DNA from: Escherichia coli
GTDB lineage: Bacteria; Pseudomonadota; Gammaproteobacteria; Enterobacterales; Enterobacteriaceae
Strand: one strand, 5' to 3'
Length of the DNA stretch: 64,000 bases
NCBI RefSeq assembly: GCF_013315695.1
Contig: NZ_CP054353.1
Made by a program: the position numbers and the translations under genes. The notes below the pieces were generated by a model. That model did not search any database. It saw only the letters and a program-made list of their open reading frames with translations, and was not told the DNA's origin. Shown in pieces: positions 30,945 to 57,044 of the stretch (positions are counted from its first letter, which is position 1; each line of letters begins with the position of its first letter).

Positions 30945-32138
30945 GTGTTTCAAAAAGTTGACGCCTACGCTGGCGACCCGATTCTTACGCTTATGGAGCG
31001 TTTTAAAGAAGACCCTCGCAGCGACAAAGTGAATTTAAGTATCGGTCTGTACTACAACGAAGAGGGAATTATTCCACAACTGAAAGCCGTGGCGGATGCA
31101 GAAGCGCGCCTGAATGCGCAGCCTCATGGCGCTTCGCTTTATTTACCGATGGAAGGGCTTAACAGCTATCGCCATGCCATTGCGCCGCTGCTGTTTGGTG
31201 CCGACCATCCGGTACTGCAACAACAGCGCGTAGCAACCATTCAAACCCTTGGCGGCTCAGGGGCATTGAAAGTGGGCGCAGATTTCCTGAAACGCTACTT
31301 CCCGGAATCAGGCGTCTGGGTCAGCGATCCTACATGGGAAAACCACGTAGCAATATTCGCCGGGGCTGGATTCGAAGTAAGTACTTACCCCTGGTATGAC
31401 GAAGCGACTAACGGCGTGCGCTTTAATGACCTGTTGGCGACGCTGAAAACATTACCTGCCCGCAGTATTGTGTTGCTGCATCCATGTTGCCACAACCCAA
31501 CGGGTGCCGATCTCACTAATAACCAGTGGGATGCGGTGATTGAAATTCTCAAAGCCCGCGAGCTTATCCCATTTCTTGATATTGCCTATCAAGGATTTGG
31601 TGCCGGTATGGAAGAGGATGCCTACGCCATTCGCGCCATTGCCAGCGCTGGATTACCCGCTCTGGTGAGCAATTCGTTCTCGAAAATTTTCTCCCTTTAC
31701 GGCGAGCGCGTCGGCGGACTTTCTGTTCTGTGTGAAGATGCCGAAGCTGCAGACCGCGTACTGGGGCAATTGAAAGCAACAGTTCGCCGCAACTACTCCA
31801 GCCCGCCGAATTTTGGTGCGCAGGTGGTGGCAGCGGTGCTGAATGACGAGGCATTGAAAGCCAGCTGGCTGGCGGAAGTAGAAGAGATGCGTACTCGCAT
31901 TTTGGCAATGCGTCAGGAACTGGTGAAGGTATTAAGCACAGAGATGCCAGAACGCAATTTCGATTATCTGCTTAATCAGCGCGGCATGTTCAGTTATACC
32001 GGTTTAAGTGCCGCTCAGGTTGACCGACTACGTGAGGAGTTTGGTGTTTACCTGATTACCAGCGGGCGCATGTGTGTCGCCGGGTTAAATACGGCAAATG
32101 TACAACGTGTGGCAAAGGCGTTTGCTGCGGTGATGTAA
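30945..32138 (+). CDS. tyrB: aromatic-amino-acid aminotransferase
   Basis: GTG start [23 protein letters not shown]; 397 aa; aminotransferase class I. Confidence 0.93.
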
Positions 32139-32360
32139 TGCAGGAAAGCAGGCTGGAGCTACCCAGCCTGCAGTGAAATTAAACTGTCGTCGCTTTCACT
32201 CTTGCTTTATAGATGATTTTTTTGATGCCATCGTTTTACGTGAGGGATAATAAAAGGTTGTCAGTTCTTTTATTGTTAAGTTTATCCCAATTATCTGGAA
32301 TTCCTTTCCCTGTTTTTTCGTGTGGAGTAATAATTTTTGCACATCTAACCATTATTAAAT

Positions 32361-32903
32361 TTAATAATAAGTATCGGGTTTGTTACGATAGAATATTTCT
32401 ATATCCTCAAGAATATGCTTTGCCTTATTGCCTGTGACTTTCTGAGATTCAATTATAGTATCGTTAAATTCTAATGTTAAAGAGAACTCTTTTTTTCCGC
32501 TTTGTGTAAGTTTAACCTTATATTGATTACCAATATCAAATAAAAAGGTCCTGTAATGAGAATAATCACCTTTAACCTCCTCGGCAAAACAGCAAAGTGT
32601 GCAAATATACATACAATCTTTCTTGCCTCTGATTTTGTTAACTAAATCAATAAATGCATGAAAAACTGTACTTGCAATAGAACTTGATACTTCTTCTCCA
32701 GGTCTACAAAAATCTTTTGCAATTTTTAACTGTGTTTCTATATATAAAAAGAAATCTTTGGCATAAGAAAAATCTTTGGAATAAGAGATATCTTTATTAT
32801 TTAGTGCATCTAGCTCAACAGGTAAAGATGTCATTTTGTTGCTATTCACATATGATATATTCATATCATCATCTCCTTCGAGAGTAATAAAATTAGTCAC
32901 CAT
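32361..32903 (-). CDS. AT-rich hypothetical protein between tyrB and aphA
   Basis: 180-aa ORF, strongly AT-rich; no family recognised; sits where K-12 carries the short gene yjbS. Confidence 0.5.
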   Translation of the reverse strand: MVTNFITLEGDDDMNISYVNSNKMTSLPVELDALNNKDISYSKDFSYAKDFFLYIETQLKIAKDFCRPGEEVSSSIASTVFHAFIDLVNKIRGKKDCMYICTLCCFAEEVKGDYSHYRTFLFDIGNQYKVKLTQSGKKEFSLTLEFNDTIIESQKVTGNKAKHILEDIEIFYRNKPDTYY

Positions 32904-33075
32904 TGTAGGGTAGGGTTCTGGTCAACCAGAAATCATCTTTATAAACTTCGATTGTTTTTGTAATGCTGTATCATTAAGTTCATTAAATCGTACAGCAGAT
33001 AAATGTTCTATCAAATTTCGCTCATTTGCAGAGGATTCATCATAATAAACGTAAAATTAATGTATCCTTCATTGA

Positions 33076-37976: not shown

Positions 37977-38513
37977 ATGGCCAGCAGAGGCGTAAACAAG
38001 GTTATTCTCGTTGGTAATCTGGGTCAGGACCCGGAAGTACGCTACATGCCAAATGGTGGCGCAGTTGCCAACATTACGCTGGCTACTTCCGAATCCTGGC
38101 GTGACAAAGCGACCGGCGAGATGAAAGAGCAGACTGAATGGCACCGCGTTGTGCTGTTCGGCAAACTGGCAGAAGTAGCCAGCGAATATCTGCGTAAAGG
38201 TTCTCAGGTTTATATCGAAGGTCAGCTGCGTACCCGCAAATGGACCGATCAATCCGGTCAGGATCGCTACACCACAGAAGTCGTGGTGAACGTTGGCGGC
38301 ACCATGCAGATGCTGGGTGGTCGTCAGGGTGGTGGCGCTCCGGCAGGTGGCAATATCGGTGGTGGTCAGCCGCAGGGTGGTTGGGGTCAGCCTCAGCAGC
38401 CGCAGGGTGGCAATCAGTTCAGCGGCGGCGCGCAGTCTCGCCCGCAGCAGTCCGCTCCGGCAGCGCCGTCTAACGAGCCGCCGATGGACTTTGATGACGA
38501 TATTCCGTTCTAG
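37977..38513 (+). CDS. ssb: single-stranded DNA-binding protein
   Basis: 178-aa protein [44 protein letters not shown] with Gly/Gln-rich tail and C-terminal DFDDDIPF. Confidence 0.98.
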
Positions 38514-38553
38514 AGTTAACTTGTGAGTTATTTGTAAAGAATCCATACGCAGG

Positions 38554-38580
38554 CCCCTGTTAATTCAGGGGTTTTTTGTT
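38554..38580 (+). terminator. rho-independent terminator of ssb
   Basis: cccctg-ttaattc-cagggg hairpin followed by a T-run. Confidence 0.8.
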
Positions 38581-38671
38581 TCTATCGTCGGAAAAAGTGT
38601 CTTGTATAAATTGGTGATTTTTCACATAAAGTGTACCTTGTAATTGTGTAATGTTTATGGGGTGTGAGTGC

Positions 38672-39919
38672 ATGGAAAAGAACTACAGAGTTACAACATT
38701 TGTCATGGATAGTGGCGAGCGCTATTGCATGGTAGTGGATCGTGCTTCTGGGCTTCCCATGTATTACCCCACTCTGTTTCTAACAACTCAAATCCGCAAT
38801 AGAGAGGATGCTTTTTCAACGATGTTGGCGGCGGCTAACAACCTGGTTATGTTGTTACGCTTTGTAGAGAGTCGCGACATTGACCTTGAGCAGCGGTTTT
38901 TGACCAAAGACTTCTTCAAGCCACATGAGCTGGATGATCTGCGAGATTTTGCTCAGTGCAAACAAAGAAAGGGGCCATTAACTGTGTCCTCTACCTCTTG
39001 GTTGGCCGATGCGATGACCGATATCGTTGATAACGGGACACAGCATTCCCGGCTAACAACGTTTGCCAACTATTTACACTGGTATGCGATGCATATCTTA
39101 AAGACGACAGAACTGGAAGTTGTCGAAAAGATCAATGCTATGGCGGCGCAGATAAAGACGCGCCGACCATCTAAAAAGCGCAGAAACCACGACTTACAAG
39201 ACAGGTCATTGAGTGATGTTCAATTGGACGCGCTATTTGAAGTCATCCAGCCTAGATCAGAGTTAAACCCTTTCTCAATAGATGTGCAGCGCCGCAATCG
39301 GCTGATGATCTTACTTCTGTTTTATCTTGGCATCCGAGGTGGTGAATTATTAAATATAAGAATACAGGACATAGATTTTAGCGCTAACAGGATCCGTATC
39401 GTTAGGAGAGCAGATGAACAAGCTGACTCTAGAACCAATGAGCCTAATGCTAAAACTAGAGAACGGCTCTTACCGTTGGCTGAATCCTTAGCTCAAGAAC
39501 TGCATAGTTATATCCTTCAAGATCGCCGGAAAGTCAGAAATGCGAAGAAAAATGACTATCTGTTTGTAACTTACAAGAGTGGACCAACTCTGGGAAATCC
39601 TATCTCCAAAGGGGGATATCATAAAATTTTTTCCGTAGTCAGGTCTATATCACCGCAATTGTATGCAGCGACAGGACATTCGCTCCGCCACACTTGGAAT
39701 CGCAAGTTTTCAGAAAGAATGGATGCCATGAATGAGCAAGTCAGCGAGGAACGCCAAGAGCAACTTCGTTCGTACTTAATGGGCTGGAGAGATGGCTCGG
39801 GAACCGCAGCGACTTACAACAAGCGTTTCATTCGGCAAAAAGGTTTTGAGGCCGCCTTGGCATTACAAGCAGGTAACGGCACTAGCTTGCCAGAGGACTT
39901 CAAGGATGACCATGAATAA
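38672..39919 (+). CDS. tyrosine recombinase 1 of 3 (phage-integrase family)
   Basis: Integrase motifs: box-I Arg region LLFYLGIRGGELLNIRIQDIDF, GHSLRHTW (H-x-x-R) and LMGW...TAATYNKRF (catalytic Tyr). Alternative ATG starts at 38651 and 38657. Confidence 0.8.
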   Translation: MEKNYRVTTFVMDSGERYCMVVDRASGLPMYYPTLFLTTQIRNREDAFSTMLAAANNLVMLLRFVESRDIDLEQRFLTKDFFKPHELDDLRDFAQCKQRKGPLTVSSTSWLADAMTDIVDNGTQHSRLTTFANYLHWYAMHILKTTELEVVEKINAMAAQIKTRRPSKKRRNHDLQDRSLSDVQLDALFEVIQPRSELNPFSIDVQRRNRLMILLLFYLGIRGGELLNIRIQDIDFSANRIRIVRRADEQADSRTNEPNAKTRERLLPLAESLAQELHSYILQDRRKVRNAKKNDYLFVTYKSGPTLGNPISKGGYHKIFSVVRSISPQLYAATGHSLRHTWNRKFSERMDAMNEQVSEERQEQLRSYLMGWRDGSGTAATYNKRFIRQKGFEAALALQAGNGTSLPEDFKDDHE

Positions 39920-41444
39920 CCTCTTACTTGGGTTAGTACCAGAACGAATCCGTGCCAGGGCCAATGGCTACTCTTTTCTGTTGTATGACACATCGTGGAC
40001 ATTGGATAGAAATATCACTATTAATCTTGCTGATATTCACCATTACTTGTCAGATGGGACGCTAGATGGCTGCCTGCGTACACTGGCGTTTTATGCATCC
40101 AATCGTTCTTCTTCTCATACAAAAAATATTCTTGAACGGTTTCAGCACATGCTGCGTGAGACTGACGCGAGAGAAATTACTGATACGGTATTGATTAATT
40201 ATCGGTCGATGCTGTCGCCTGCAACAGAATGGTATCTAGCAACCATCCGTGGCTTTCTTCGATCCTGGCACGAACTGGGCTATCCCGGCATCAGTAAGGA
40301 GGTGAACCGCTTGCTAGATGGCTGGACGCTAAAGGGTAATCGTAAGGGGGATGCGGTTAAGCGCATGGATCCTCAAGAGGGGCCACTGACGGATAATGAG
40401 CTGACAGCGTTTAACGAGGGGGCTGTTCGGGCTTATGAAAAGAGCTTAATTACTATAGCTGAGTTGGCTATAGCACTTGGCACCAGTCATACAGGACGTC
40501 GTCCCATTCAGATCTCGCTGCTTCGTGTGGTCGATGTCCTTTGTGGTAAAAATGGAAAGGGAGAGCCCTTCTATGTGTTGAATGTGCCGCGAGCCAAGCA
40601 GCGCAGCAGCTCTTTCCGAATAAACTTCAAACCATTTGCAATATCACTGGAACTATGGGCAATCCTGAGTGCTCAGGCAAGAAATGCGATTGCGCAGGTT
40701 GAAAATCGTTTGGGGTTTGAATTGCAGGAAGATGACCGGCAGCAAATCCCTCTTTTTCCTGATCTTGATGTGTTAGATGCCGTCCAATCTCCTTATGAAT
40801 TCCGCCAACTGCATGCTACCGACAAACTCCACATTCCCGCCGCAGAGATAACCGACACCCTCCAATACATCGTAGAAAAGTCCGACATCCGGTCGGAACG
40901 TACCGGTGAGCTATTACATATCAATGCTCGTCGTTTTCGTTATACCACAGGCACACGAGCTGCCCGGGAAGGCTTTGGCGAGCTGGTGATTGCGGAACTG
41001 CTTGACCACGCGGACACCCAAAACGCAGGCGTTTACATCAAGAATATCCCCGAGCATGTGAAAAAGCTTGATGAGGCGGTTGGCTTCCAATTAGCACCAT
41101 ACGCTCAGGCCTTTGTCGGGGCACTTGTCGATTCAGAGAGAGACGCGCATCGAGGTAACGACCCTACCAGTCGTATTCGGACCGAAATGGGTCAGGGTGT
41201 TGGTACTTGTGGAGAACATGGCTTTTGTGGTGCCAATGTTCCTATTCCTTGCTACACCTGCATGCATTTCCAGCCTTGGCTGGACGGCCCACATGAAGAT
41301 GTCTATCAAGGACTGCTCAACGAACGTGAACGGGTGAAAGAGATAACTGGCGACATCCAGATTGCTGCCGTACTTGATCGCAGTATTATCGCGCTGGCAG
41401 ATGTGATCATGCGTTGTGCAAAACGTCGTGAAGAGCTTAGTTAA
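39905..41444 (+). CDS. tyrosine recombinase 2 of 3, with C-terminal Cys-rich region
   Basis: Start ATG overlaps the stop of recombinase 1 (translational coupling); ARRFRYTTGTRAA ... LLDHADTQNAGVYIK resembles the R/H-x-x-R ... Y catalytic region; Cys cluster CGEHGFCGANVPIPCYTCMHF. Confidence 0.7.
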
Positions 41445-41460
41445 CAGGGAGCAATAACCA

Positions 41461-43494
41461 ATGGCTGAGATTTTCCTGTTTAAGCCAAAGGCTACGCTGA
41501 CAGCAGCAGAAAACCTTGAAGCATTCATATCCCAGTGCCGAGATCAATTGACTGTATTCGGCTCTGATCTCACTTGGGAAGATCCTGTTTGGCCAAACAT
41601 AACTGTATTTGCCAAGTTGGGCATTATTACGAGAAAACCCATACTGGAAGAGACGCAAGACCCTGCTTTCATTGATTTTGCCAAAGCCTATTTCCGTTAC
41701 CAGCAGGGGCATAGCCTCTCTAGGGCAAAGAATGAAAGTAAAGCCCTCCGTGCGGTTGAGGCGGCTTTGCTTCAAGTAAATGGAAACGCAAATATTGATG
41801 GCCTGTCGATTTCTGTGCTGGATGAAGCAGCTGAATTGGCAAAGCATTACTACTCCGATGGCTCCGCATATCATTGTGGCCGTGAGATTGAGCGGCTGGC
41901 TAAGTTTGTAGCTGAAAACCAGCTTGTATCAAGTGCTGTACAAAATTGGGTCAATCCAATTAAACGTGCAGAGGATAAGAACAAAACGAGCAGAAAGGCG
42001 AAGAAAAATAGGGAAGATAAACTTCCGAGTGATATTGCTCTTAATGCGTTGGCGGAAATTTTTGCCAACGACCCAATTCATGAGCGAGACATATTTACAA
42101 CATCGGTTTTTGCCATGTTGATGTCGGCACCTTCACGTATTACTGAGGTGTTAGCACTGCCTGTGGATTGCGAGGTTTTTGAAACGGATCGTGAAGGGAT
42201 AGAACGATATGGTTGGCGTTTTTTTGCGGGGAAAGGCTATGAGGGTGATATCAAATGGATACCCACCGTGATGGTCGGTATAGCTAAGACAGCCGTAGCT
42301 AGAGCTAGAGTGCTCTCTGAAAATGCACGACAACTGGCCAAGTGGATCGAGAAACACCCGAATAAGTTTTACCGCCATGCTAACTGTCCCAGTGTAGCCG
42401 ATGATGAGCCATTGACGATGAAGCAGGTTTGTATGGCGCTCGGTTTTGCACATTACTCTAAAAAGACGTGCAGGTCGTGTCTTGGTAATCGAGGTTTAGC
42501 TAAAGAGGATGGTGTACATACTCTAAATAGCCTGTGGCAGCACACAATGGCGCGTTTACCGGATGGCTTTCCGTGGTTTGATAAAGACAAGGGAATTAGG
42601 TACAGCAATGCCTTGTTTGTACTGAACGTAAATCAGTTCCACGGGAACAGAGGATGCATACCAGTTGAGTTACATAAGCCAACCAATAATTTCTTCAACA
42701 GTGATCTGACGCCTCGTCTGTCCTTGAAAGGAAAACATGCCAGTATCTTTGATCGCCATGGTTACCATGCTGTAAACGGAGAGCCGGTGAAATTAACCTC
42801 ACATCAGGCTCGACACCTGCTCAACACCATTATCCAGCGCGGTGGCCTGTCAAACTTGGAAATTGCCAAGTGGTCGGGGCGGGCAGATGTGAAACAGAAT
42901 CGAACTTACAACCACATGACTGAATACGAACTGGTTGGCATTGCTGAACGCCTTGATCCCACAACAGCGCTATTTGGGCCTGCTGGCGAGGTGGCAAAGC
43001 ATCTGCCCGTGACTATGCAGGAGTTCAATACCTTAGAGCATGCCGCAGTCCATGTGACGGAGTATGGCTACTGTGTGCATGATTACACCATGAGTCCTTG
43101 TGAGAAATTCCGAGATTGCGTCAATTGTACCGAACAGGTTTGCATCAAAGGCGATGATGCTGAAAAGTTGGATCGCATTAAGATACGTCTGGAGAAATTA
43201 GAGCGACTGTTTTTTCTTGCTGACGCAGCAGTGGAAAGTGGTGAGATAGGAACTGATCGCTGGTATCAGTACCACAAGAAAACTGTTACCCGGCTTCGTG
43301 AACTAGTGGCTATTTTAGAGAATCCAGACATTGAAAATGGTGTCCAGATTAAGCTCCGGGGCAATGATTTCAGCCAGCTTCGCCGTGTTGTCGCAAAGAC
43401 GTCTATTGTGGCCATCGAGCAAAAAGGCAAAGAAAGTGAAGAAGCTGTGATGTTAGATGATTTGACAACTTTGTTAGGAGGTGGCCTTGGCTAA
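41461..43494 (+). CDS. tyrosine recombinase 3 of 3 (677 aa), with C-terminal Cys-rich region
   Basis: LTSHQARHLLNTIIQRGG ... WSGRADVKQNRTYNHMTEYE (H-x-x-R-H ... Y); Cys cluster YGYCVHDYTMSPCEKFRDCVNCTEQVC; begins 16 bp after recombinase 2. Confidence 0.75.
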   Translation: MAEIFLFKPKATLTAAENLEAFISQCRDQLTVFGSDLTWEDPVWPNITVFAKLGIITRKPILEETQDPAFIDFAKAYFRYQQGHSLSRAKNESKALRAVEAALLQVNGNANIDGLSISVLDEAAELAKHYYSDGSAYHCGREIERLAKFVAENQLVSSAVQNWVNPIKRAEDKNKTSRKAKKNREDKLPSDIALNALAEIFANDPIHERDIFTTSVFAMLMSAPSRITEVLALPVDCEVFETDREGIERYGWRFFAGKGYEGDIKWIPTVMVGIAKTAVARARVLSENARQLAKWIEKHPNKFYRHANCPSVADDEPLTMKQVCMALGFAHYSKKTCRSCLGNRGLAKEDGVHTLNSLWQHTMARLPDGFPWFDKDKGIRYSNALFVLNVNQFHGNRGCIPVELHKPTNNFFNSDLTPRLSLKGKHASIFDRHGYHAVNGEPVKLTSHQARHLLNTIIQRGGLSNLEIAKWSGRADVKQNRTYNHMTEYELVGIAERLDPTTALFGPAGEVAKHLPVTMQEFNTLEHAAVHVTEYGYCVHDYTMSPCEKFRDCVNCTEQVCIKGDDAEKLDRIKIRLEKLERLFFLADAAVESGEIGTDRWYQYHKKTVTRLRELVAILENPDIENGVQIKLRGNDFSQLRRVVAKTSIVAIEQKGKESEEAVMLDDLTTLLGGGLG

Positions 43495-43906
43495 GCATCT
43501 GGACAATAGAGACATTAACGCCATCGTAAATCTAATTCGAGGATGGAAGGAACCAAAACTGTCCTGGTCAGCAATTTGTGAGGCGGCAGAACCATTGGTC
43601 GGAAAGTTGCCGTCAAGACAGTCCCTTAATGCACATGAGGCAATAGTGACTGCCTATCAAACAAAGAAAGAGGCGCTTAAAGGCCGTGGCCCCAAAAATC
43701 CGCGTCCAGCTAGTTTGAACATTGCAGCCGCGAGGATTGTGAATCTTGAAAGCGAAATCGAAGAGCTTAAGGAAGAGAACCGGAGGTACAAACAACAGTT
43801 TGTGATCTGGCAATACAATGCATACAAATATGGAATGACAGAACATCAACTTAATGCGCAGCTGACAAAGATTGACCGTGAGCGCTCTGATGGAGAAAGA
43901 AGATAG
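43481..43906 (+). CDS. small recombinase-associated protein (141 aa, predicted coiled coil)
   Basis: ORF start overlaps the recombinase-3 stop by 14 bp; charged, helix-prone sequence (LESEIEELKEENRRYKQQF); placement is like TnpC of Tn554-type elements. Confidence 0.6.
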   Translation: MALAKHLDNRDINAIVNLIRGWKEPKLSWSAICEAAEPLVGKLPSRQSLNAHEAIVTAYQTKKEALKGRGPKNPRPASLNIAAARIVNLESEIEELKEENRRYKQQFVIWQYNAYKYGMTEHQLNAQLTKIDRERSDGERR

Positions 43907-43981
43907 TTGCTGAGTACGATATCGAGGGTACATTTCTCTGTGTAGGGGTAGTTATTTACAAAAAAATAGGAGAATAATTAA

Positions 43982-46900
43982 ATGGTCAAACCAAACTGGG
44001 ATAACTTTAAAGCTAAATTTAGTGAGAATCCTCAAGGTAATTTTGAGTGGTTTTGCTACTTGTTGTTCTGTCAAGAATTCAAAATGCCCGCAGGTATATT
44101 TAGATATAAGAATCAATCTGGTATCGAAACTAATCCAATAACCAAAGATAATGAAATTATCGGTTGGCAATCTAAATTCTATGACACAAAATTGTCGGAT
44201 AACAAAGCTGATCTTATAGAAATGATTGAGAAAAGCAAAAAGGCTTATCCAGGATTAAGTAAAATCATTTTCTATACTAATCAAGAGTGGGGGCAGGGGA
44301 GAAAGTCCCATGAACCTGAAGGCGATAAGAACGCTGATAATTATTTGGAAACTGTCGGAAATAGTAACGATCCCAAAATAAAAATTGAAGTTGATCAGAA
44401 AGCATATGAGTCGGGTATCGAAATAGTATGGAGAGTTGCTAGTTTTTTTGAATCACCGTTTGTAATAGTTGAGAATGAAAAGATTGCTAAACATTTCTTC
44501 TCCCTTAATGAAAGCATCTTTGATTTATTAGAAGAAAAGCGCAAGCACACAGAAAATGTTTTATATGAAATTCAAACCAATATAGAGTTCAAAGACAGAA
44601 GTATTGAAATTGACAGACGACATTGTATAGAACTTCTACATGAGAATCTAGTTCAGAAAAAAATTGTCATCGTCAGCGGAGAAGGTGGGGTTGGAAAAAC
44701 AGCAGTTATCAAAAAAATTTATGAAGCAGAAAAACAATACACTCCTTTCTATGTCTTTAAGGCTAGCGAGTTTAAAAAGGACAGTATTAATGAGCTATTC
44801 GGTGCGCATGGCTTAGACGATTTCTCTAATGCTCATCAAGACGAATTACGTAAAGTCATAGTCGTAGATTCTGCTGAAAAGCTTTTAGAACTGACCAATA
44901 TCGATCCTTTTAAAGAATTCCTGACTGTTTTAATAAAGGATAAATGGCAGGTTGTTTTCACAACCCGTAACAACTACTTGGCAGATCTGAACTATGCTTT
45001 CATAGATATTTATAATATAACTCCTGGAAACTTAGTAATAAAGAACCTTGAACGCGGCGAGCTAATAGAGTTATCTGATAACAATGGATTTAGCCTTCCT
45101 CAAGATGTTCGATTATTAGAACTAATCAAAAATCCATTTTATCTAAGTGAATATTTGAGGTTCTATACCGGTGAAAGCATCGATTATGTGAGCTTCAAAG
45201 AAAAGCTTTGGAATAAGATTATTGTCAAAAATAAACCTTCTCGGGAGCAGTGTTTCTTAGCGACTGCTTTTCAGCGGGCTAGTGAGGGCCAATTTTTTGT
45301 CTCCCCGGCATGTGATACTGGAATTTTAGATGAGTTAGTTAAAGACGGAATTGTCGGCTATGAAGCTGCTGGTTACTTCATTACACATGATATATACGAG
45401 GAATGGGCATTAGAAAAGAAAATTTCTGTCGATTATATCCGTAAAGCGAACAATAACGAGTTCTTCGAAAAAATAGGAGAATCACTTCCTGTTCGCCGTA
45501 GTTTTCGGAATTGGATATCTGAACGATTGCTTTTAGATGACCAGTCCATAAAGCCTTTTATCGCAGAAATAGTCTGTGGAGAAGGAATATCAAATTTTTG
45601 GAAAGACGAGTTATGGGTAGCTGTCCTTCTTTCCGATAATTCAAGCATATTTTTTAATTACTTTAAAAGATATTTACTTAGTAGTGACCAGAATCTATTA
45701 AAAAGACTTACTTTCTTATTGAGGCTTGCTTGCAAGGACGTTGATTACGATCTGCTTAAACAGTTAGGTGTAAGTAATTCAGATCTGCTTTCCATTAAAT
45801 ATGTTCTTACTAAGCCTAAGGGAACTGGTTGGCAGAGTGTGATCCAATTTATCTATGAAAATTTAGATGAAATAGGGATCAGAAATATTAATTTTATACT
45901 TCCTGTGATTCAGGAGTGGAATCAAAGAAACAAAGTGGGTGAAACGACTCGATTATCTAGTTTGATAGCCCTAAAATATTATCAATGGACTGTAGATGAG
46001 GATGTCTATTTATCCGGAAGGGATAATGAGAAAAATATTCTGCATACGATTCTTCATGGGGCGGCCATGATTAAACCTGAAATGGAAGAGGTTTTAGTTA
46101 AGGTTCTTAAAAATAGGTGGAACGAGCACGGTACCCCATATTTCGACCTTATGACCTTAATCCTTACTGACTTAGATTCATATCCGGTTTGGGCATCTCT
46201 CCCGGAATATGTTCTACAATTGGCAGATCTGTTCTGGTATCGGCCACTTAAAGAAACAGGCGAACGTTATCACAGTATGGATATTGAAGATGAGTTCGGT
46301 CTATTTAGGTCTCATCACGACTATTATCCAGAAAGTCCATATCAGACTCCTATATATTGGTTACTACAATCACAGTTCAAAAAAACAATAGACTTTATTC
46401 TTGATTTTACGAACAAGACAACGATATGTTTTGCCCACTCCCATTTTGCTAAAAACGAAATTGAAGAAGTCGATGTCTTTATTGAAGAAGGAAAGTTTAT
46501 AAAGCAATATATATGCAATCGTCTGTGGTGCTCATATCGAGGAACACAGGTCTCTACCTACTTACTTTCATCAATTCATATGGCATTGGAAAAATTTTTT
46601 CTTGAGAATTTTAAAAATGCAGACTCGAAAGTGTTGGAAAGTTGGCTTCTTTTCTTGTTAAGAAATACCAAGTCAGCTTCTATTTCTGCAGTAGTTACGA
46701 GTATTGTACTTGCATTCCCTGAGAAGACATTCAATGTAGCTAAAGTACTATTCCAAACAAAGGATTTCTTCCGTTTTGATATGAATCGAATGGTTCTAGA
46801 CAGAACACATAAAAGTTCATTAATCTCCCTCAGGGATGGCTTTGGCGGTACAGATTACAGAAACTCTTTGCACGAAGAAGATAGAATTAAAGCTTGCGAT

Positions 46901-48745
46901 GATGTGCATAGAAATACTTATCTTGAAAATCTTGCCTTGCATTATCAAATTTTCAGGAGTGAAAATGTAACGGAGAAAGATGTCATTGAAAGGCAACAAG
47001 TGCTCTGGGGTATTTTCGATAAATACTATAATCAGCTTCCAGATGAAGCTCAAGAAACTGAAGCCGATAAGACGTGGAGGCTCTGCTTGGCAAGAATGGA
47101 TCGGCGAAAGATGAAAATAACTACCAAGGAGAAAGATGAAGGGATTGAGATATCATTCAATCCTGAGATTGACCCTAAACTAAAGCAATATAGTGAGGAA
47201 GCAATAAAGAAAAACTCCGAGCATATGAAGTATGTAACGCTGAAACTATGGGCAAGCTATAAAAGAGAAAAGGATGAACGTTATAAGAATTATGGAATGT
47301 ATGAGGACAATCCGCAAATTGCTTTACAAGAGACCAAAGAAATAATAAAAAAGCTTAATGAGGAAGGGGGTGAAGATTTCAGACTATTAAATGGTAATAT
47401 ACCAGCAGACGTTTGTTCTGTATTACTGTTAGATTACTTTAATCAGTTGAATAATGAAGAGAGAGAATATTGTAAAGATATTGTTCTAGCATATTCTCAA
47501 CTTCCGTTGAAGGAAGGCTATAATTATCAGGTACAAGATGGGACAACCTCGGCAATTTCAGCCTTACCCGTGATTTATCATAATTATCCAATGGAAAGGG
47601 AGACTATAAAAACAATATTACTTTTGACACTGTTTAATGACCACTCTATTGGAATGGCAGGTGGGCGCTACTCAGTATTTCCTAGTATGGTGATTCATAA
47701 ATTATGGCTAGACTATTTTGATGATATGCAGTCTCTATTGTTTGGTTTTTTGATTTTAAAGCCAAAGTATGTAATTCTTTCAAGAAAAATCATTCATGAA
47801 AGTTATCGTCAAGTAGACTATGACATTAAAAAAATAAATATTAATAAGGTGTTTTTAAATAACTATAAGCATTGCATATCAAATGTCATCGATAATAAAA
47901 TATCTATAGATGATTTGGGAAGTATAGATATAGTTGATCTACATATTTTGAACACAGCTTTCCAATTAATTCCAGTTGATACTGTTAATATTGAACATAA
48001 GCAATTGGTTTCCTTAATTGTTAAAAGATTTTCTACAAGCCTATTGTCAAGTGTTCGAGAAGATAGAGTTGATTACGCTCTTCGGCAGTCTTTCTTGGAA
48101 AGATTTGCCTACTTTACGCTTCATGCGCCCGTGAGCGATATTCCCGATTATATAAAACCTTTTCTTGATGGTTTCAACGGTTCAGAGCCTATTTCAGAGT
48201 TATTTAAAAAATTTATTCTCGTCGAAGATAGATTAAATACTTACGCCAAATTTTGGAAGGTTTGGGATTTGTTTTTTGATAAAGTGGTTACTTTGTGCAA
48301 GGATGGAGATAGGTATTGGTATGTAGATAAAATTATAAAAAGTTACCTTTTTGCTGAATCTCCATGGAAAGAAAACTCTAATGGTTGGCACACATTTAAA
48401 GATAGCAATAGTCAATTCTTTTGCGATGTATCTAGGACTATGGGCCATTGCCCTTCAACTTTATATTCTCTTGCCAAATCTTTGAATAACATTGCCAGTT
48501 GCTATCTTAATCAAGGTATAACCTGGCTTTCAGAAATGTTGTCGGTTAATAAAAAGCTATGGGAAAAGAAATTGGAAAATGATACTGTTTATTTTTTAGA
48601 ATGTTTGGTTAGGCGGTATATTAACACTGAGCGTGAGCGAATTAGACGAACCAAACAGTTGAAAGAAGAGGTCTTAGTAATATTGGATTTTTTGGTAGAG
48701 AAAGGATCTGTTGTTGGTTATATGTCACGGGAAAATATTCTGTGA
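43982..48745 (+). CDS. large STAND-type P-loop NTPase with N-terminal Mrr/PD-(D/E)xK-like domain; candidate Avs-like antiviral sensor
   Basis: 1587-aa ORF, about one third GC. Walker A IVIVSGEGGVGKTAV; Walker B VIVVDSAEKL; sensor-1-like VVFTTRN; N-terminus FEWFCYLLF...SGIETN...IIGWQSKFY...KIIFYTNQEW resembles Mrr catalytic-domain motifs; long C-terminal region of more than 1000 aa. RBS-like GGAG upstream. Confidence 0.75.
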   Translation: MVKPNWDNFKAKFSENPQGNFEWFCYLLFCQEFKMPAGIFRYKNQSGIETNPITKDNEIIGWQSKFYDTKLSDNKADLIEMIEKSKKAYPGLSKIIFYTNQEWGQGRKSHEPEGDKNADNYLETVGNSNDPKIKIEVDQKAYESGIEIVWRVASFFESPFVIVENEKIAKHFFSLNESIFDLLEEKRKHTENVLYEIQTNIEFKDRSIEIDRRHCIELLHENLVQKKIVIVSGEGGVGKTAVIKKIYEAEKQYTPFYVFKASEFKKDSINELFGAHGLDDFSNAHQDELRKVIVVDSAEKLLELTNIDPFKEFLTVLIKDKWQVVFTTRNNYLADLNYAFIDIYNITPGNLVIKNLERGELIELSDNNGFSLPQDVRLLELIKNPFYLSEYLRFYTGESIDYVSFKEKLWNKIIVKNKPSREQCFLATAFQRASEGQFFVSPACDTGILDELVKDGIVGYEAAGYFITHDIYEEWALEKKISVDYIRKANNNEFFEKIGESLPVRRSFRNWISERLLLDDQSIKPFIAEIVCGEGISNFWKDELWVAVLLSDNSSIFFNYFKRYLLSSDQNLLKRLTFLLRLACKDVDYDLLKQLGVSNSDLLSIKYVLTKPKGTGWQSVIQFIYENLDEIGIRNINFILPVIQEWNQRNKVGETTRLSSLIALKYYQWTVDEDVYLSGRDNEKNILHTILHGAAMIKPEMEEVLVKVLKNRWNEHGTPYFDLMTLILTDLDSYPVWASLPEYVLQLADLFWYRPLKETGERYHSMDIEDEFGLFRSHHDYYPESPYQTPIYWLLQSQFKKTIDFILDFTNKTTICFAHSHFAKNEIEEVDVFIEEGKFIKQYICNRLWCSYRGTQVSTYLLSSIHMALEKFFLENFKNADSKVLESWLLFLLRNTKSASISAVVTSIVLAFPEKTFNVAKVLFQTKDFFRFDMNRMVLDRTHKSSLISLRDGFGGTDYRNSLHEEDRIKACDDVHRNTYLENLALHYQIFRSENVTEKDVIERQQVLWGIFDKYYNQLPDEAQETEADKTWRLCLARMDRRKMKITTKEKDEGIEISFNPEIDPKLKQYSEEAIKKNSEHMKYVTLKLWASYKREKDERYKNYGMYEDNPQIALQETKEIIKKLNEEGGEDFRLLNGNIPADVCSVLLLDYFNQLNNEEREYCKDIVLAYSQLPLKEGYNYQVQDGTTSAISALPVIYHNYPMERETIKTILLLTLFNDHSIGMAGGRYSVFPSMVIHKLWLDYFDDMQSLLFGFLILKPKYVILSRKIIHESYRQVDYDIKKININKVFLNNYKHCISNVIDNKISIDDLGSIDIVDLHILNTAFQLIPVDTVNIEHKQLVSLIVKRFSTSLLSSVREDRVDYALRQSFLERFAYFTLHAPVSDIPDYIKPFLDGFNGSEPISELFKKFILVEDRLNTYAKFWKVWDLFFDKVVTLCKDGDRYWYVDKIIKSYLFAESPWKENSNGWHTFKDSNSQFFCDVSRTMGHCPSTLYSLAKSLNNIASCYLNQGITWLSEMLSVNKKLWEKKLENDTVYFLECLVRRYINTERERIRRTKQLKEEVLVILDFLVEKGSVVGYMSRENIL

Positions 48746-48840
48746 TGTAGTTGAAAATAATAATTTTAATGAGAGCTTTTCCAATTTAGGCTCCAGGGAT
48801 TGGAGCCTTTTTATTATCGAAAAGATTAATATCTTATAAG

Positions 48841-49059
48841 TCAATCAGTAAAACGCAGCAAAGCTCGTTGCTCTTGAATGTTCACTCCGTGATAAATTCT
48901 TTGATTACCACATAAATAACAAGAACAAGCACAAGGGGTGCAGTAAATTTTCCCTACAACTTTTTCAGTTTTAGCCAACGCAATTCGATATGTTTTTCTC
49001 TTAGATTTTAACCGAGATATATGATGACGACGCCATGCCCGATTTCTAACCATTTCCAT
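48841..49059 (-). CDS. small basic Cys-rich ORF (72 aa), possible zinc-ribbon protein or gene remnant
   Basis: ORF with RRHHISRLKSKRK and C-x-x-C-x-C...C; lies between the convergent NTPase gene and the 273-aa gene; coding status uncertain. Confidence 0.25.
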   Translation of the reverse strand: MEMVRNRAWRRHHISRLKSKRKTYRIALAKTEKVVGKIYCTPCACSCYLCGNQRIYHGVNIQEQRALLRFTD

Positions 49060-49283
49060 TCACTCCAATTTTCTACCGCGGTGTTATACCGCGCCCGTAT
49101 CAATCTTTGGAGTTCGATATCGATCTGACCTTTCATGAATACCTCGGAATTTATCAATAAAGTGAGTGCTATATCATAGCTTATGGGATGAAAGTTTGAT
49201 ATTTAGCACTTTTCAGCTTTAGGTAAAGCTGTCCTCAATAAAGCTAATTTCTTGTTTATTAATGGAATTTCTATGTGGAAGTG

Positions 49284-50105
49284 TTAGAAATCCTGTTTTA
49301 CTTTATCCATCGTTAAAACTTTACTTATTATATAAGGATCATAATTTCTTATACTCATAAGGCAATTTATCAAATTGGAAACGTGGCTATCATCAGGTAT
49401 AAGTATATATTTAATATCATCGAAAGAAAAACCAATGCCAAATTCAGAGAATTTTTTACTTAAGACGGCCTTCTGGTTAGGTTCCACCACTCGCTCTAAA
49501 TTTAGGCTAGGCCATAAATCGCCAACAAACGGATGCGGTACATATCTCCATTCTTTTTCGTCAGCGTAGATATAATTCTCAATGGTTTTTTCGTTCGTCC
49601 TTTCTAATTTCCCTTTATAATTTTTCATATAGCGTAATAAATTATAAAGGTCAGCGTACTCTTCTTTAAGGCTTTCAAAATACTTACGCTCTTTATTATC
49701 AAGGATATGCCTTTTCGACCATAGCGGAATTAACGCATCCTTTAGTTTTCTAATTCTTTTATTATACTTTGAAAATAATTCACTGCCTTGATTCATGTAT
49801 AGAACGGGATGGAGATCATTTTTCTCAGCCCATTCTTTTGTTAACCCAAATCCAAATTCACCATATTTTCCACTATGATCTTTAATCTGAGAAAGCTTGA
49901 TGTCACAGAATGAAACCATTGGTACTGCGAAATTTCTTCTTCCTTTTACTCCGACTATGCGTTCACGGGCAAGAAATGGTTTAAAATAGAGTTCTGTTAA
50001 AATGCTATAGAATGCCTCTTCATTTTTAGTAAAGTGAAACAACGTTGTTGGATGTAAACTATTAACTGCTTGTATAACTGTTTCTTGGTTTTCTATAGCA
50101 CTCAT
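49284..50105 (-). CDS. AT-rich hypothetical protein (273 aa), possible abortive-infection or defence-associated protein
   Basis: Clean ORF convergent with the NTPase gene; no family identified with certainty from sequence alone (LFHFTKNEEAFYSIL N-terminal motif). Confidence 0.6.
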   Translation of the reverse strand: MSAIENQETVIQAVNSLHPTTLFHFTKNEEAFYSILTELYFKPFLARERIVGVKGRRNFAVPMVSFCDIKLSQIKDHSGKYGEFGFGLTKEWAEKNDLHPVLYMNQGSELFSKYNKRIRKLKDALIPLWSKRHILDNKERKYFESLKEEYADLYNLLRYMKNYKGKLERTNEKTIENYIYADEKEWRYVPHPFVGDLWPSLNLERVVEPNQKAVLSKKFSEFGIGFSFDDIKYILIPDDSHVSNLINCLMSIRNYDPYIISKVLTMDKVKQDF

Positions 50106-50512
50106 ATATTAACTGTTCCATAGTGTAAAACCTGACTTAGCAAAGGTTATCATACTAGTCTTTGTACTGTAAGCACACTTGGTTTAATTCCACGCACTTT
50201 TTGAGATTTCCGGTTTTTTGATCTCTTACCAAAATCTATGCCAGATTGAATCAAAGGTCCGAGCTGGGTCACCAAAAAAAGTAAAATTATGCACTTTGAT
50301 AGATTATATTTTAACTAAATTCTTTACAGTTAAATCATTTCTTATGCCTTAGTTTCTGATAAAAAAGGTTTTTTTTCACGATTTATAAGTATCAGGTTAT
50401 GTGAACCGTTCTGATTTGTCGTTAAAACAATAGGTTATATTGTTTTAAGGTGGATGATTAAAGCATCTGCCAGCCATAAAAAAGAAGCCTCCGTTTTGGA
50501 GGCTTCTACATA

Positions 50513-55618: not shown

Positions 55619-57044
55619 TAATGCCAGTCAGTTAAGCAACTGACTGGCTCTTTTTCGGGGCTGTGGGGTATTTCCAGGGCCTCTCCTTTACCACTCTCGG
55701 GAAGGCCCTTTCCCTTCTTGTCGGTAATTTCACAAGTTGTCCCATACTTGCAAGATCGCGCATCAGCTCCGGTATACGTCCCGGTGAAGCGCCCTGCAAT
55801 GTCATCAGCATTCTCATCACCATTCCGCATGATTCTGAGAAACTCAGTTGATTCGGCCAGTAACCTTTCAGATGTTCCGCCATTTTAATCATCTGATATC
55901 TCACCAGATTATAAGCCAGTAAGACACCCCACAGCTCTTGCTCCACAAGCTCCGGTTTTTTACTTCTCAGCGTCAGCCTGCTCAGTTGCATCGTCTGTTT
56001 TATCTCCCTGTATCCCAGTTCGATTTCCCAGCGATGACTGTACAGATCCGCCATTTCTCCTCCGGGGAAGCGCATGGCGTCCGTCATCGACGTCAGCAGA
56101 TGGCAGACTTTTCCTTTGCGCGTCACGGTCAGCAGGCGGGCTGTCACTTCATTTCCCAGTCCCGGCCACTTTTTTCGTGCCTGCGGGCTGGTTTTCAGCT
56201 TCACCAGATGATCGCCTTTACCCAGTTTTCTGATCTCTTCATATTGCGCTCCCTTTCTGAGAGGTATCATCCAGTGGCGGTGTTCTCCCGCCAGGCTCCA
56301 GGCATTTAACAGTCCCAGTGAGTAATAACCTTTATCCATTAACGTCAGAGTGTTATCGCCGGTTTGTTCTATAAGTTGCTCAGCAAGCTCATTTTCGCTG
56401 TTCTTCATCGTGCCGAAGGCTGCAGCCGTCAGCAGATGGCTGGTCAGTTCCATCTGGCAGACCATTTTGACCTGCGGGTAGAGCGCCGGGTTCCCGGCAT
56501 GTGTCTGGCGGGGGAAGGCTGCATCGTTCTCTGGTGTATCCGGTGTGCGCCAGAACACACCATCGATGGCCAGCAGGGTCAGGCCGCACCAGTGCGGATG
56601 CGGCGTGGCGTTATGCCAGAGCTGCGCTGTTTTCGTGAACACGCGGCGGACAGCCTCACTTCCCAGGCGCTGGCGGGCCTGAATAACGGCACTGGGGGCA
56701 ACGAAGGGGCGATTGCCCGGCAGCATGATGTCCAGGCGATTCACAATCTGGTGAAGAGGTTCTTTACGCTCAAGCGCCATGCCAACAATACACCAGACCA
56801 TCATTTCGAGGGGAAGACGGCGCTTGCGTAGCGTTACAGTACCTGATTCGGCAAGGCAACGAGAGATGAGTTCGGGGTCGAGGTAATCCCCCAGAGAAGT
56901 CAGTGGGTTACGCAGAGAATCGTAACGGGATACCAGATCAAGAGCCTGTCCAATGTGCATAAAAAAATCCGGAAACAAGTGAGCGTTTCCGGATTCTTAC
57001 ACAGCCACTGGATCGGTCAACTGATCCTTAACTGATCGGCATTA
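55619..57044 (-). mobile_element. IS4 insertion sequence (1426 bp) with 13-bp target duplication GTGGCAATGGCTG
   Basis: Imperfect terminal inverted repeats TAATGCCAGTCAGTTAAGCA / TAATGCCGATCAGTTAAGGA; direct repeat at 55606..55618 and 57045..57057; encodes a DDE transposase. Confidence 0.9.
55632..56960 (-). CDS. insG: IS4 transposase
   Basis: About 442-aa DDE transposase ([16 protein letters not shown]...); the track ORF extends 6 codons further upstream. Confidence 0.9.

Follow-up and report, generated by a model that had tools for sequence, protein, structure and literature searches.

The question raised by this locus was what kind of protein is encoded by a very long gene at 44-50 kb of the window (the whole stretch of 64,000 nucleotides of Escherichia coli DNA that was analysed), where the DNA has about 34% G+C, compared with about 53% G+C in the flanking core genome. 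From the DNA letters and a list of reading frames, the earlier note had described a 1587-aa STAND NTPase with N-terminal Mrr-like nuclease motifs and had proposed an Avs/AVAST-type phage sensor, leaving the subfamily and the trigger undecided. The reading reached here, with a probability of roughly 95%, is that the ORF encodes Avs4 (AVAST type 4), an allele of EcAvs4 and a single-protein STAND/NLR-type immune sensor with a published portal-triggered nuclease mechanism. Both the Avs4 protein and the GInt element which carries its gene have been described before, so the finding is already known.

The avs4 gene was a single unbroken ORF with an ATG start, both in the ORF listing and in the translation of the window, and its start and stop agreed with the PGAP calls in RefSeq records of identical DNA, which PGAP labels avs4; the frame read in the earlier note was thus borne out. 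A frame of 4.8 kb that stays open in DNA of 34% G+C cannot be a chance ORF. A ribosome-binding site was read directly in front of the start codon, and a terminator-like hairpin sits 3' of the stop codon, between avs4 and a convergent AbiGi-family gene (Table 1). The promoter scan gave fewer sigma-70-like sites than were found in shuffled controls, and none of them was convincingly positioned upstream of avs4. By analogy with what is reported for GInt cargo (PMC5385486), avs4 may be transcribed by read-through from ginD.

Table 1. Features of avs4, of the encoded protein and of the carrier island, in window coordinates
Feature	Position	Strand	Remarks
GInt-type mobile island, ~11.9 kb	38512..50412	+	Ends set by comparison with a plasmid copy and with K-12, where the site is empty; ginA-, ginB-, ginC- and ginD-like genes 5', cargo 3'
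Left direct repeat CCGTTCT (7-bp)	38505..38511	+	Last two ssb codons (Pro-Phe) and first base of the stop codon
Right direct repeat CCGTTCT (7-bp)	50406..50412	+	Right island junction
ginA-like tyrosine recombinase, 422 aa	38651..39919 (PGAP start 38672)	+	NCBIfam XerA/XerC/XerD-type and PHROG integrase matches; PGAP 'tyrosine-type recombinase/integrase'
ginB-like site-specific integrase, 550 aa	39792..41444 (PGAP start 39906)	+	NCBIfam NF041502, 677 bits vs cutoff 350; weak Pfam Phage_integrase
ginC-like degenerate tyrosine recombinase, 677 aa	41461..43494	+	Annotated hypothetical; only faint Pfam Phage_integrase, residues 441-487
ginD-like small protein, 141 aa	43481..43906 (PGAP start 43487)	+	Assigned by position and size only
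AGGAG ribosome-binding site (Shine-Dalgarno)	43968..43972	+	9 nt 5' of the avs4 ATG; direct sequence reading
avs4 CDS	43982..48745	+	1587 aa plus stop; allele of EcAvs4; from ORF listing and translation, profiles, PDB alignment and PGAP
Predicted effector domain, Mrr-like PD-(D/E)xK nuclease	43982..44548	+	Residues 1 to ~189; candidate catalytic E22, E49, Q63-x-K65
Walker A / P-loop GEGGVGKT	44678..44701	+	Residues 233-240, Lys239; weak Pfam nSTAND1, nSTAND3, NB-ARC and AAA matches centred here
Walker B strand VIVVDSAEKL	44855..44884	+	Residues 292-301, Asp296
VVFTTRN, STAND sensor-1-type TTR motif	44951..44971	+	Residues 324-330, Arg329
Predicted C-terminal sensor region	45659..48742	+	Roughly residues 560-1587, boundary inferred and approximate; from residue-by-residue identity to 8DGF
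Terminator-like hairpin and T-run	48788..48818	+	9 bp stem, hairpin at 48788-48808; consensus match only
Solitary AbiGi-family gene, 273 aa	49284..50105	-	Second cargo gene; PADLOC AbiGi 1.6e-44; convergent with avs4

The identity of the protein was given by matches over its whole length. The PADLOC model of Avs4 (PDLC02169) was matched with 2361.3 bits, residues 1-1587 falling on model positions 1-1570, and it was the sole PADLOC family match. The NCBIfam equivalog NF041815 ("AVAST type 4 anti-phage nuclease Avs4") scored 2065.9 bits, more than 500 bits above its trusted cutoff of 1500, with residues 5-1587 on model positions 1-1579. In the PDB, the sequence search found a single entry, 8DGF chain A ("ATP-binding protein Avs4"), which has 1587 residues, was aligned from 1 to 1587 and is 99.2% identical to the window protein. 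EcAvs4 is reportedly the protein described by Gao et al. 2022 (Science 377:eabm4096), and the structure 8DGF is that of Avs4 bound to the portal of phage PhiV-1. The full alignment to 8DGF, together with a second search with the C-terminal 647 residues, gave 13 substitutions (window residue first): N345K, V671I, N714K, V1001A, G1010D, Q1173K, I1315M, I1317K, Q1341K, M1519I, F1538Y, T1549N and E1562Q. Twelve of these fall within residues 671-1562, i.e. in the C-terminal two-thirds, and none of the 13 lies in a motif.

These comparisons support the proposal of an Avs/AVAST-type STAND NTPase. They determine the subfamily as type 4 (Avs4), and the trigger would be the portal monomer of a phage, as assigned from the published characterisation of Avs4 and the 99.2% identity to the solved complex. 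The gene could also be imagined to belong to another antiviral STAND family (the terminase sensors Avs1-3, Avs11 or another nSTAND clade) and to resemble Avs4 in architecture only, since the Pfam matches (nSTAND1, nSTAND3, NB-ARC, AAA_16) are weak and non-specific and fit any STAND protein. This was refuted by the PADLOC, NCBIfam and PDB comparisons, in which the full-length Avs4 family, the wide excess over the NF041815 cutoff and the near identity to 8DGF all agree, and its probability is negligible. Neither PADLOC nor NCBIfam matched the window protein to the Avs1-3 families, and Avs11, a second portal sensor, is reported to have no sequence or structural similarity to Avs4.

In complete E. 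coli genomes, avs4 was found by megablast at 95% identity or more in 358 of 5426, with 25 occurrences on plasmids. Among the records listed, 24 of 25 carried the PGAP name avs4, and in the remaining one the gene was split by an IS903B insertion. Over 24 kb, the window shared 100% identity with the E. coli MSB1_4I chromosome (NZ_LR898874.1).

The first domain of Avs4 is the predicted nuclease. Its motifs stand at residues 21-28 (FEWFCYLL), 46-51 (SGIETN), 59-67 (IIGWQSKFY) and 94-103 (KIIFYTNQEW). Residues 1-189 were aligned with 38 homologues, giving 39 sequences with the query, in which E49 and K65 were invariant and E22 and Q63 were conserved in at least 90%; with such conservation, the N-terminal motifs exceed a chance resemblance. 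The acidic ... Q-x-K pattern pointed out in the earlier note is, going by this alignment, the pattern that is conserved.

An AlphaFold2 model of the N-terminal domain, made from the homologue alignment, had a mean pLDDT of 87 and was of PD-(D/E)xK fold, with Mrr-family nucleases as its nearest non-self neighbours in the fold comparison. The matches after self were LlaBIII (8.8), AF1548 (7.8), AspBHI (7.7), FokI (7.1), N.BspD6I (7.1) and MspJI (6.7), which are Mrr-type and other PD-(D/E)xK restriction nucleases. The HMM search which had been proposed as a check did not give such a match: with residues 1-1200 of Avs4 against Pfam the N-terminus was without a match, and neither Mrr_cat (PF04471) nor Mrr_cat_2 (PF13156) was matched in Pfam even at E <= 10. 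When each homologue was scanned against Pfam, a limit of E <= 0.001 gave Mrr_cat_2 in one of the 39, and a limit of E <= 0.1 gave it in three. The Mrr-like nuclease is therefore retained on the fold comparison, the conserved residues and this transitive match in a few homologues, and not on a direct Pfam match. As modelled, the relationship holds at the fold level, with conserved catalytic candidates, instead of as membership in Pfam Mrr_cat, and the N-terminal effector has the PD-(D/E)xK (Mrr-like) fold in the model. About 19 residues, SHEPEGDKNADNYLETVGN, are inserted in the nuclease domain of E. coli Avs4 at residues ~109-127 (window 44306-44362); this insertion is absent from most aligned homologues and was modelled with low confidence (pLDDT 53-72).

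Every motif quoted in the earlier note could be located in the Avs4 translation, and among them were the Walker A, Walker B and TTR motifs of a STAND NTPase. One distance had to be corrected, as the TTR motif had been placed about 40 residues after Walker B, and the measured distance between the Walker B strand and the TTR motif, start to start, is 32 residues. VIDSAEKL was conserved in those homologues of the 1-189 alignment which are long enough to reach Walker B, and FTTR was also found in the longer ones. The STAND profile search that had been suggested gave matches at the expected place, centred on Walker A, but their scores were low: Pfam on residues 1-1200 yielded only sub-threshold P-loop/STAND matches (nSTAND1 0.0012, nSTAND3, NB-ARC 0.007) at residues 212-361. 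Walker A, Walker B and the sensor-1-type arginine of a central STAND P-loop NTPase are all present, in a region identical to the 8DGF chain.

By its identity to EcAvs4, the C-terminal region would be a TPR-type domain that binds the portal monomer. The mechanistic statements on EcAvs4 are drawn from papers that cite Gao et al. 2022 and from PDB entry 8DGF. Portal monomers are recognised by Avs4 (PMC12642450), and the TPR domain of EcAvs4 contacts the stem, clip and wing of PhiV-1 gp8 (PMC12847820); recognition is directed to the protein fold, through direct binding. EcAvs4 is described as portal-sensing, its nuclease domains being united by tetramerisation (bioRxiv 10.64898/2026.04.30.721860). 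Oligomerisation needs ATP but not ATP hydrolysis, and related PD-(D/E)xK effector domains, once activated, degrade phage and bacterial DNA (PMC12236752). For the Avs4 family, phage resistance has been reported, as well as portal-triggered toxicity which needs the nuclease and ATP binding (PMC12642450; PMC12236752; bioRxiv 10.64898/2026.04.30.721860).

In the window protein, the C-terminal TPR-type sensor would bind the portal protein monomer of an infecting tailed phage, and with ATP bound in the central NTPase, where Lys239 belongs to Walker A and Asp296 to Walker B, an Avs4 tetramer would then form. Four N-terminal Mrr-like PD-(D/E)xK nuclease domains would be brought together in this tetramer and so be activated, and the activated nuclease may, like the related effectors, degrade phage and bacterial DNA. 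The outcome would presumably be abortive infection. Sequence identity, domain order, motifs and nuclease fold were computed for the window Avs4 itself; portal binding, tetramerisation and nuclease activation are carried over from the literature by the 99.2% identity and would apply to this protein to that extent. Since the identity is so high and the motifs are unchanged, the EcAvs4 mechanism appears to be the best explanation for the window Avs4.

The avs4 gene is carried by an island inserted behind ssb, and the gene order is uvrA(-), ssb(+), island, yjcB, pdeC, soxS, soxR, ghxP. The insertion turns the ssb stop codon from TGA into TAG, and the SSB protein is unchanged, its translation ending in DDDIPF; the insertion site is empty in K-12. 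At the 5' end of the island, three integrase-type genes and a small fourth gene are co-oriented, overlapping or abutting, and the cargo begins 76 nt after the fourth. The low-G+C cargo consists of avs4 and the convergent AbiGi-family gene. No profile match was found for the ginD-like 141-aa protein in PADLOC, NCBIfam or PHROG. The insertion is site-specific with short direct repeats, and the island is present or absent at the same site. Besides the junction repeat, searches for inverted and direct repeats within the island turned up only short matches of the kind expected by chance.

According to the description of GInt elements, a ginABCD operon stands at the 5' end, the cargo follows directly after ginD and imperfect direct repeats flank the element; GinC lacks some motifs and is often annotated as hypothetical, and the end of ssb is a preferred site (PMC5385486). 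Hochhauser et al. listed this site as hotspot #39, which is occupied by defence-carrying GInts, and classed its islands as GInt by a BLAST criterion of homology to the Pseudomonas GinA-D proteins (PMC10121019; PMC11728103). The legend of the multi-panel hotspot figure names AVAST as one of several defence systems (PMC10121019). The window island fits a GInt-type element, to which it is likened by gene organisation, ends and site. A Gamma-Mobile-Trio (GMT) island was also considered and rejected, since NCBIfam GmtY reached 17 bits against a cutoff of 340 and neither of the other two proteins had a match among the GMT models, and since the third GMT protein (GmtX) is not a recombinase.

Some other features of the window could be recorded beside the island. 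An IS1A at 21712-22409 lies inside dinF, which PGAP gives in the identical record as two pseudogene fragments (~20833-21696 and 22456-22935), and an IS4-family transposase gene at 55632-56978 (-), between ghxP and yjcE, is a pseudogene with an internal stop according to PGAP. A 'SopA family protein' gene at 13740-15320, with ~32% G+C, stands between malM and ubiC and looks like a horizontally acquired insert in a core region. Low G+C (~34-35%) was also observed at 24135-25138, a frameshifted DUF2713-family pseudogene downstream of zur, and at ~32000-33000, the yjbS region that separates tyrB from aphA, where a small hypothetical gene is frameshifted.

Among PLSDB plasmids from E. coli and Salmonella, at least 30 have the same island behind their ssb gene, which explains the spread of the avs4 cargo. 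The right end of the island is identical in more than 25 plasmid copies, and the chromosomal and plasmid copies in strain MSB1_4I are identical to each other. A diverged variant was found in strain E8 (L004 12123-23554); compared with window positions 38651-50105, its ginA, ginB and ginC are 84.6-87.2% identical and its ginD, avs4 and AbiGi-family gene 97-98%. This mosaic suggests either that cargo was exchanged between diverged GInt backbones or that the recombinases evolved faster.

The number of substitutions and their position could be taken as a hint that the window copy is non-functional or functionally shifted, with Avs4 disabled or its target altered by the 13 differences from the characterised EcAvs4, 12 of which lie between residues 671 and 1562. 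However, the frame is intact, the catalytic and NTP-binding motifs are all unchanged and identical avs4 DNA is present in many independent complete genomes and plasmids. In addition, 8 of the 13 differences are common to the 8DGF protein and the third natural allele, that of strain E8, which gives them the look of ordinary standing polymorphism, and the synonymous and nonsynonymous changes between alleles are spread evenly across the domains. A disabled or shifted allele is thus very improbable, and the window copy is taken as an ordinary EcAvs4 allele.

The window and E8 alleles differ synonymously at 71 codons and nonsynonymously at 62, the latter with 3.5-4.1 changes per 100 residues in the nuclease, NTPase and sensor regions alike. 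No enrichment of amino-acid changes in the sensor was found between these two natural alleles, and at the depth of this comparison the sensor does not look like a focus of diversification. With 12 of 13 substitutions at residues 671-1562, the portal range of the window allele could differ from that of EcAvs4. A wider proposal starts from the differences of 13-62 residues, most of them in the sensor, between natural Avs4 alleles: the alleles might also differ in the phage portals that they recognise, and GInt moves them between plasmid and chromosomal ssb. It is speculative and rather unlikely. If it were true, E. coli populations could trade specificities for portals through the movement of GInts.

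For the second cargo gene, Pfam PF10899 was present in all homologues of the encoded AbiGi-family protein, and NCBIfam AbiGI was matched with 45 bits, far under its cutoff of 300, so the protein is not an equivalog. An AbiGii-sized ORF near the gene was not found in the ORF listing, and the two genes of an AbiG system are therefore not both there. It could be supposed that the convergent gene works together with Avs4 as a two-gene system, its AbiGi-family product being an antitoxin or regulator of Avs4: both genes occur together in every island copy examined, the E8-type variant keeps ginD-avs4-abiGi at 97% with ginABC only ~85% identical, and the PGAP family name is 'abortive infection system antitoxin AbiGi'. 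Yet the genes are convergent and 540 bp apart with the terminator-like hairpin between them, which means that they are not an operon. The AbiGii partner is absent, and strain N32 has an AbiGi-family pseudogene with an intact avs4, so Avs4 is tolerated without the AbiGi-family gene.

Homologues of the AbiGi-family protein (40-60% identity) are solitary in unrelated defence spots. Of the three contexts examined, one was beside a Cap4-nuclease/SMC-like ATPase locus, one lay within a P2-type prophage, in its variable region, and one had a prophage cI repressor as neighbour; no STAND gene was found near any of them. On these three contexts and the N32 pseudogene, the AbiGi-family gene was rejected as a conserved partner of Avs4; a two-gene system is thus highly unlikely, and the gene is treated as separate cargo and not as part of Avs4. 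In a weaker variant of the two-gene idea, the co-transferred solitary AbiGi-family gene would add a second defence layer.

Avs4 is a textbook case of bacterial pattern-recognition immunity, and the window copy is an ordinary allele. The use of the result is that an effector-NTPase-sensor protein could be recognised from raw sequence, and that the exact family, with the published trigger of the family, has now been supplied. The GInt that carries the gene, inserted at the 3' end of ssb in E. coli hotspot #39, is recorded as well and is already in the literature.

Compared with known systems, the closest is EcAvs4 (8DGF), with which the window protein shares the length of 1587 aa, colinearity, the nuclease-NTPase-sensor order and all motifs; the 13 substitutions are conservative or surface-type, with no known functional difference. 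The island resembles the GInt elements described in 2017 in its three integrase-type genes and small fourth gene at the 5' end, the cargo right after it, the short end repeats and the defence cargo at hotspot #39, whereas its exact repeat is 7 bp and imperfect repeats of 10-11 nt were reported in pseudomonads. Among Mrr-family proteins (the nuclease domain of LlaBIII/LlaGI, AF1548, AspBHI, MspJI), to which the predicted fold is related, identity to the Avs4 domain is only 10-12% and a direct Pfam Mrr_cat match is lacking; the Avs4 domain would be an effector activated by oligomerisation and not a modification-dependent restriction enzyme. Avs1-3 (e.g. SeAvs3) have the same layout of effector, STAND NTPase and repeat sensor, bind a conserved phage protein directly and activate an N-terminal nuclease by tetramerisation, but they sense the large terminase subunit instead of the portal and have other sensor domains. 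Eukaryotic NLRs and NB-ARC STAND receptors also have a P-loop STAND NTPase with Walker A, Walker B and a TTR-type motif, and ligand-induced oligomerisation of an N-terminal effector. Their sequence relation to Avs4 is very distant (NB-ARC i-Evalue 0.007), and Avs4 differs from them in having a TPR-like sensor instead of LRR and a nuclease as its effector.
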